DNA of 8,509 nt from a virus (Duplodnaviria; Heunggongvirae; Uroviricota; Caudoviricetes), in IMG/VR virus record IMGVR_UViG_2541047122_000023; one strand, given 5' to 3'. Below the pieces are notes generated by a model. The model was not told the DNA's origin. It saw only the letters and a list, made by a program, of their open reading frames with translations, and searched no databases. Below are positions 3,280 to 4,032 of this stretch, piece by piece (position 1 is the stretch's first letter; every line of letters starts with the position of its first letter). The position numbers and the translations under genes were made by a program.

Positions 3280-4032
3280 TCATCTCGTCACTTTCCTCAA
3301 TTGTGTCTCAGCATACGCTTCTTCCTGCCAGCACTTTGTAACCAGTTTATCAATGACATCTGCATATCCTTTGTACCACTGATAATCCGTCAGGTCTGGT
3401 ACCAGCTTCTGGACATGAAGCCGCGCCAGTGTGGTTGGTAAACGGCTAAACCGGTTTCCATTGCAACGCCCACAAACCTTATAAACAGGCGTGCCATGAA
3501 GCCTGGTTCTTTTTTCATCCAGGACAATACCTTTACCCTTACACCCTCTGCACGCTGTGCTGACTTCTCCCTTACCATGACAATGCTGACACAGTTCCTT
3601 CACCCACTCTTCCTTGATAACAGATTCCCCGCTTCTGGAGTGTTTCACCACCTCGCGCAATACATCATGAAATCCAGTACCAGCACAATGCTCACAGCGA
3701 GCCTTACTTGCCGCAGACCTGGAATAATCAGCAAAGGCAAAATTCACAAGGTAAGGAATGATCTGTAGCCGGGTTTCTTCACTCAATTTGTTCAATGTCG
3801 GGTTATCCAGTGCCATCGCGTAATTGAGCAGACCTTCAATCGCAAACTGAGGATCCTGAACACCAACTTTTGCCAGGAATAAGGCAAACCCAAGCGGTGC
3901 TTTCGACTGCACCATCCCCTGCGCAGCCATTACATCCGTAATTGTTAAACCACCAGAGCCTGTCGCCGGTGCGTCATCGCTCAATTTTGGAGATTTTGGG
4001 GAGTAATATTTCGGTAAGGCTTCAAAGTTCAT
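3280..4032 (-). CDS. Q: Late-gene antitermination protein Q (QuuQ/phage-82-like type), 250 aa
   Basis: MNFEALPKYYSPKSPKLSDDAPATG...CEHCAGTGF...CQHCHGKGE...CRGCKGKGI...CGRCNGNRF... closely matches my recollection of the E. coli Qin prophage antiterminator QuuQ (250 aa). ATG at 4032 with SD GGAG 8 nt upstream. Located directly upstream of the promoter/terminator pair and lysis genes. Confidence 0.85.
   Translation of the reverse strand: MNFEALPKYYSPKSPKLSDDAPATGSGGLTITDVMAAQGMVQSKAPLGFALFLAKVGVQDPQFAIEGLLNYAMALDNPTLNKLSEETRLQIIPYLVNFAFADYSRSAASKARCEHCAGTGFHDVLREVVKHSRSGESVIKEEWVKELCQHCHGKGEVSTACRGCKGKGIVLDEKRTRLHGTPVYKVCGRCNGNRFSRLPTTLARLHVQKLVPDLTDYQWYKGYADVIDKLVTKCWQEEAYAETQLRKVTR

Follow-up and report, generated by a model that had tools for sequence, protein, structure and literature searches.

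A long-arm antitermination protein Q of the lambda family with four CxxCxGxG-like motifs and a likely second zinc site

The DNA analysed here, called the window below, is a stretch of 8,509 nucleotides from a virus of the class Caudoviricetes (IMG/VR record IMGVR_UViG_2541047122_000023). In its list of open reading frames (ORFs), positions 3280–4032 of the minus strand encode a protein of 250 amino acids plus stop codon, which we assign to the antiterminator Q, in a long-arm form of the lambda-Q family. All coordinates given for this gene and its parts refer to the minus strand. The assignment to Q, made previously from the sequence alone, is borne out by profile and structure searches. Specifically, PF03589 (Antitermination protein Q) matched at 177 bits (8e-53, cut-off 26.7) in the Pfam profile search, the best sequence matches in the PDB are the lambda Q chains 7ubm_Q, 4mo1 and 7ubj (E 1.8e-37), and in PHROGs phrog_127, 'anti-termination protein Q-like', covers the protein over its full length (2e-107). 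PF03589 represents the Q-lambda family, which is separate from the Q21 and Q82 families (PMC9388147). Membership in the Q82 or Q21 family, a first candidate for a Q of 250 amino acids, is ruled out by the Pfam and PDB searches in favour of the lambda family. The AlphaFold2 (AF2) model of the whole protein has a predicted local distance difference test score (pLDDT) of 81.5, and its helical body with a helix-turn-helix (HTH) agrees with solved lambda Q. Compared to 7ubn_Q it gives an E value of 4.8e-13 and TM-scores of 0.57/0.67; in the fold search eight lambda Q chains, and no others, reached E ≤ 0.001. Judged by its sequence, the window protein is an ordinary late-gene antiterminator of the lambda-Q family.

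The N-terminal segment (residues 1–44; 3901–4032) aligns residue by residue to lambda Q 1–44. In the model pLDDT is 48–73 across these residues, which is to be expected if the segment is disordered until loading. In lambda Q the N-terminal residues refold into a torus at the RNA-exit channel (PMC9388147). Lambda Q (PDB 4MO1, 7UBJ–7UBN; PF03589) has the same parts in this region as window Q: the N-terminal torus segment and a four-helix body with HTH. Identity between the two proteins over their shared parts is about 34%. The difference between them lies in the arm. Lambda Q has 207 amino acids and one zinc ribbon, whereas window Q has 250 amino acids and an additional hairpin module between the body and the ribbon.

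The arm carries four CxxCxGxG-like motifs in residues 113–194 (3451–3696), and translation confirms that the original prediction had placed them correctly. Motif 1 is CEHCAGTG (C113/C116; 3673–3696) and motif 2, starting at residue 148, is CQHCHGKG (C148/C151; 3568–3591); their cysteines are invariant, and they form the first and the second knuckle of the extra module. Motif 3, CRGCKGKG, starts at residue 161 (C161/C164; 3529–3552) and corresponds to C118/C121 of lambda Q in the alignment to lambda 117–125. Motif 4, CGRCNGNR, starts at residue 187 (C187/C190; 3451–3474) and is aligned with lambda C144/C147; its final Gly is replaced by R, while most relatives have G. The motifs are spaced by 35/13/26 residues and hold eight of the nine cysteines of the protein. 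When window Q was shuffled 200,000 times, four C..C.G motifs were never obtained and three only once. The four-motif array is no product of chance.

Motifs 3 and 4 can be understood directly from lambda Q. Residues 114–152 of lambda Q make up the zinc-ribbon 'arm', with helix H3 and strands B1 and B2, residues beside the zinc ligands contact positions 11–13 of the Q-binding element (QBE), and the ribbon also contacts the β' zinc-binding domain of RNA polymerase (PMC9388147). This Cys4 ribbon consists of two CxxCxGxG knuckles, CRDCHGTG and CGRCKGVG, which are 26 residues apart, as are motifs 3 and 4. Window Q aligns to lambda Q in two stretches, 1–120 to 1–125 and 160–250 to 117–207, and about 43–48 residues (113–160), two knuckles included, have no lambda counterpart. 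The first lambda knuckle can be aligned with either motif 1 or motif 3. Over the ribbon itself, 19 of 40 residues are shared between window Q 160–199 and lambda 117–156, compared to 8 of 40 in the next best register. The spacer between motifs 3 and 4 (residues 169–186; 3475–3528) is predicted to be strand-helix-strand (DSSP: E169–171, H173–179, E184–186) and is equivalent to B1-H3-B2 of lambda. An AF2 model of the arm only (residues 103–202) has a pLDDT of 83.8. Its eight best Foldseek matches in the PDB are all lambda Q (E 0.005–0.02); the remaining listed matches have E > 1. Superposition on lambda Q covers 40–43 columns with 44–48% identity and a root-mean-square deviation of 2.0–3.7 Å. Identity this high is reached only in the register 160–199/117–156, which means that the modelled knuckles 3 and 4 sit like the pair in lambda, with C161, C164, C187 and C190 aligned to C118, C121, C144 and C147. 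On the sequence and the model, motifs 3 and 4 with their 18-residue spacer are a lambda-type Cys4 zinc ribbon and a predicted metal site.

Motifs 1 and 2 belong to the part that lambda Q lacks. Between them lies a β-hairpin (residues 121–147; 3592–3672), predicted to be self-paired in both AF2 models: two 11-residue strands, 121–131 and 137–147, are joined by a turn of five residues at pLDDT 84–89. The full-length and arm models also agree that each knuckle is flanked by short strands. A self-paired hairpin would bring knuckles 1 and 2 together. The hairpin varies in length within the family. In relatives, the distance from motif 1 to motif 2 ranges from 14 to 63 residues, whereas 2-to-3 is fixed at 13 and 3-to-4 at 26; variable length in this one segment suits a loop with both ends at one metal site. 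The profile of residues 109–158 (motifs 1 and 2) is colinear with that of residues 157–198 (motifs 3 and 4) in hhalign (probability 93%, E 3.6e-7), and a ribbon duplication may be the origin of the extra module. None of the solved structures that were matched in our sequence and fold searches of the PDB contains this module.

The cysteines of all four motifs are conserved. All eight are unchanged in an alignment of 102 relatives with 64–97% identity, and also, in a MAFFT alignment, in 30 diverse long-form relatives with 27–59% identity to window Q. The invariant columns across these 30 long forms are M1, D33, G48, L68, the eight cysteines and three motif glycines, so that the eight Cys and three Gly are nearly all of the invariant columns in the arm. 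Eight invariant cysteines make two zinc sites likely, and from its sequence window Q likely binds two zinc ions. The second structural zinc is most likely held by the knuckles of motifs 1 and 2. It could be argued that these two motifs are a relic left over from a duplication, with no functionally important metal or with disulfides or a redox switch, and that the lambda-type ribbon alone is important. Short forms, lambda and P22 among them, do work without the module, and the hairpin between the motifs is highly variable in both length and sequence. On the other hand, Gly153 in motif 2 and all four cysteines of this motif pair stay invariant even in relatives with 27% identity, although their surroundings do not, and none of the full-length relatives examined lacks one Cys of a pair. 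Such strong purifying selection is what is seen at structural metal ligands; moreover, stable disulfides are unlikely in a reducing cytoplasm. We regard the relic explanation as improbable.

Our preferred reading is that the arm consists of two tandem zinc ribbons, formed by motifs 1+2 and motifs 3+4, and that the knuckles are not interleaved as in DnaJ; we put its probability at roughly 0.7. Several points weigh against it. The pairing of motifs 1 and 2 was derived from secondary-structure strings and by elimination, not from Cys–Cys distances, and the AlphaFold models were built without metal. The hhalign score between the two modules is due mostly to the Cys/Gly motifs. The 13-residue spacing from motif 2 to motif 3 resembles that of Anti-TRAP (14), in which two adjacent knuckles share one zinc, and Anti-TRAP profiles weakly match this pair. 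Finally, the residues preceding the first lambda knuckle resemble those preceding motif 1, so that the lambda knuckle can be read as a hybrid of motif 1 and motif 3, and either topology would then fit.

The last two points bring us to the proposal, raised in the original prediction, that the four motifs form a DnaJ-like two-zinc centre. In common with window Q, the DnaJ cysteine-rich domain (PF00684; 1EXK) and BSD2 have four CxxCxGxG knuckles and, probably, a pair of zinc ions; weak profile and fold matches point to the same resemblance. In DnaJ, motifs 1+4 and 2+3 pair within a V-shaped interleaved hairpin, where the residues joining motifs 1 and 2 pair with those joining motifs 3 and 4; this 1+4/2+3 pairing was reportedly described by Martinez-Yamout in 2000. 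Motif spacings in E. coli DnaJ are about 17/22/14, compared to 35/13/26 in window Q. Transferred to Q, such a topology would mean that motifs 1 and 4 share the lambda-equivalent zinc, and motifs 2 and 3 bind the second zinc at the tip of the inserted hairpin in the manner of Anti-TRAP. The fixed spacing of motifs 2 and 3 is the main argument for this arrangement, and the match of the sequences preceding motif 1 and the first lambda knuckle is compatible with it. Four CxxCxGxG repeats are the signature of DnaJ, and PF00684 scores just under its cut-off (31.1 versus 32.7 bits), covering motifs 2–4 only. The profile of the arm also retrieves weak matches among PDB chains, namely 2ctt (DNAJA3, 0.0055), 2bx9 (Anti-TRAP, 0.0063) and 1exk (E. 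coli DnaJ, 0.012), and PF00684 is already found among the precomputed Pfam domains of window Q homologs.

Other results speak for two separate ribbons instead. All of these profile scores are below the cut-offs of their families: the NCBIfam DnaJ models reach 15–27 bits (cut-offs 338–585; best 3.7e-6), the Anti-TRAP profile PF15777 reaches 14.3 bits (cut-off 32) and RtpA 23.8 bits (cut-off 65; 3.5e-5). There is no DnaJ-type chain in the Foldseek top 50 for the arm, where E < 1 is reached by the eight lambda Q matches and no others. In length and sequence, the spacer that separates motif 3 from motif 4 is conserved with that of lambda, and it superposes on the lambda ribbon, which argues that knuckles 3 and 4 form one site. 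In addition, the stretch from motif 1 to motif 2 is predicted to fold back on itself, whereas in DnaJ its counterpart pairs with the stretch from motif 3 to motif 4. A true DnaJ-like domain is therefore unlikely in our view, though less so than a mere relic. Anti-TRAP (RtpA; PDB 2BX9, 3LCZ) does resemble motifs 2+3 in having adjacent CxxCxGxG knuckles about 13–14 residues apart, and in the shortest variants of the Q family motifs 1 and 2 are exactly 14 apart, which is also Anti-TRAP-like. Unlike window Q, it is a protein of 53 amino acids that has a single zinc and forms trimers. At the level of sequence, the DnaJ and Anti-TRAP matches are local similarities of the knuckles.

What stands of the proposed likeness to DnaJ is thus the type of motif, together with the weak matches to DnaJ and Anti-TRAP. 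As a comparison it was off target, because the solved lambda Q ribbon already consists of two CxxCxGxG knuckles, and the interleaved two-zinc centre is not supported by a self-paired 1–2 hairpin, a lambda-like 3–4 unit and Foldseek matches that are convincing for lambda Q only. The opposite outcome, that the cysteines simply form the ribbon known from Q proteins with no DnaJ topology, holds for motifs 3 and 4; motifs 1 and 2, however, are absent from solved Q. A further idea suggested by the resemblance of the motifs, and by that alone, is that the module was taken from DnaJ and has a chaperone-like or thiol-oxidoreductase role unrelated to antitermination. The Pfam search found neither a J domain nor a DnaJ C-terminal domain, nor any other DnaJ part, in window Q, the similarity is restricted to the knuckles, and the module is situated inside the DNA- and RNA polymerase-contacting arm of a conserved Q fold. 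We consider such a role very improbable.

The distribution of the motifs was surveyed in representatives of 50%-identity clusters, for which the Cys motifs were tabulated. Nearly all relatives of 220–280 amino acids keep four Cys pairs. Short forms such as lambda carry only the motif pair spaced by 26. Motifs 1 and 2 are jointly present or jointly absent across the family, in keeping with their proposed pairing; a natural variant without one knuckle of a pair was sought, and every full-length long form keeps all four. Relatives that seem to have three motifs read CxC (CRCxGxG) instead of CxxC in motif 3, and in these forms the distance from motif 2 to motif 4 is 38. Among the long forms CxC is confined to motif 3, and some short two-motif members share it, a further sign that motifs 3 and 4 correspond to the lambda ribbon. 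In a spread sample of phage records long forms make up roughly half of the matches. At least 1000 contigs carry a protein identical to window Q. The window itself matches a prophage region in genomes of E. coli O157:H7 with 100% identity, and Stx2c-converting phages have a Q copy that is 98% identical to window Q. On these sequence comparisons the four-motif form of Q is widespread.

Two observations from the survey concern the geometry of the knuckles. The CxC at the knuckle equivalent to lambda C118/C121, found in many long and some short Q proteins, is shorter by one residue at a place where the other spacings are fixed. In the short members P0217, P0263 and P0267 the two knuckles are 42, 32 or 17 residues apart compared to the usual 26, and MAFFT put the first knuckle of P0217 opposite motif 2; the zinc sites of these three proteins may differ in geometry from those of lambda and of the long forms.

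Downstream of Q we find a putative late promoter PR' at 3220–3248 of the minus strand, identified by reading the sequence and aligning it to phi80 pR'. It has a −35 element TTGCAT (3243–3248), a 17-nt spacer and a −10 element TAATAT (3220–3225). The consensus promoter scan of the window did not report it. The QBE would lie in the 17-nt spacer. About 40–65 nt downstream of the putative PR' start there is an intrinsic-terminator hairpin, AAAACCCGC-TGATGT-GCGGG followed by T8 (3147–3174, minus strand), which is likely the target of antitermination by Q, as its position suggests. The terminator scan found this hairpin on the plus strand only; A-runs and T-runs are present on both sides of it, and it could terminate transcription in both directions. 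In lambda, too, the Q gene is followed by PR', then a terminator and lysis genes.

Another parallel is phi80. Its annotated pR' −35, Q site and −10 align with the region downstream of window Q, the layout TTGCATTT...AAAAA.TGGATA of phi80 pR' is common to both, and a terminator occupies the corresponding position in phi80. The sequence of the annotated phi80 Q-binding site differs from its window counterpart. Phi80 Q (gp17, JX871397, 13138–13947, 269 amino acids) is also a long form and has the motifs CDCCDGGG, CKPCNGKG, CRCHGKG and CDRCGGRG in the same order. It is 39% identical to window Q, differs from it in a motif 1–2 hairpin that is longer by 17 residues, and has CxC in motif 3. An experimental study of phi80 Q is said to have been made by Guo and Roberts in 2004 (J Bacteriol 186:3599).

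Putting these elements together, antitermination in the window would proceed as follows. The HTH body and the arm would load Q at PR', between −35 and −10, and Q would engage the paused polymerase, both as in lambda. The 44 N-terminal residues would then refold to form a nozzle inside the RNA-exit channel, allowing the polymerase to read through the terminator at 3147–3174. Residues 160–195 would act as the lambda-type ribbon, which in lambda touches the promoter-distal part of the QBE and the β' zinc-binding domain. Residues 113–155 would form the extra module, an insertion that separates the helical body from the ribbon and has both knuckles at the base of the hairpin. This hairpin adjoins residues that in lambda touch the β' zinc-binding domain. 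As a peripheral second finger, it might modify contacts with DNA or polymerase. More specifically, it could contact promoter DNA, sigma region 4 or the β' zinc-binding domain and set which PR'/QBE is usable, a suggestion that we make only tentatively. If this is true, the single-ribbon lambda Q would be a reduced form in a family of mostly two-zinc proteins.

Q-lambda is a textbook antiterminator. Window Q and the family to which it belongs are already known and occur very commonly; the novelty with respect to solved Q structures lies in the extra module. To our knowledge, structural work on the family has all been done on the short, single-ribbon lambda protein, and our searches of the searchable literature turned up no account of a Q protein with a second zinc site. 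Much of the family appears to consist of long-arm forms, probably with two zinc ions each, phi80 Q and the very common Q of E. coli O157 and Stx2c phages included. If they are that common, the loading complexes of many medically relevant prophages hold a part that is missing from current structures. Since this part is in the arm that reads the QBE and touches RNA polymerase, it could bear on the specificity between Q and promoter, and on the control of late genes, which in related phages include toxin genes. This adds to existing knowledge only incrementally, and the overall mechanism is not in doubt.

The genes around Q form a typical lambdoid nin/late region. Upstream of Q are DUF968, KilA-N, RusA, a protein with a LexA DNA-binding domain and Dam; downstream are a holin, an ORF in the lysozyme position and Rz. 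Scans of the window for tRNAs and Rfam families gave no matches. Next after the putative PR' and the terminator comes an ORF of 180 amino acids (2526–3068, minus strand), at the position held by the toxin gene in Stx phages. It has no Pfam or NCBIfam match and is covered over its full length by phrog_11949 (unknown function; 3e-131). An ORF of 104 amino acids (1577–1891, minus strand) matches the N6_N4 DNA methylase profile only towards the C-terminal end (156–209 of 221) and seems to be a truncated remnant, with the late promoter region on one side and the holin gene on the other. The holin ORF itself (1105–1536, minus strand; 143 amino acids from GTG) matches Phage_holin_3_1 only from residue 35, and the true start probably lies further inside the ORF. 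Upstream of Q, the nin-like region encodes a protein of 108 amino acids (6258–6584, minus strand) that is a LexA DNA-binding domain alone, without the peptidase domain, and another of 164 amino acids (7234–7728, minus strand) with a PerC transcriptional-activator domain. At the edge of the window, an ORF of 68 amino acids (8258–8464, minus strand) matches the end of an integrase-core (rve_3/rve_2) transposase domain, a fragment of an insertion sequence element that adjoins the prophage region.
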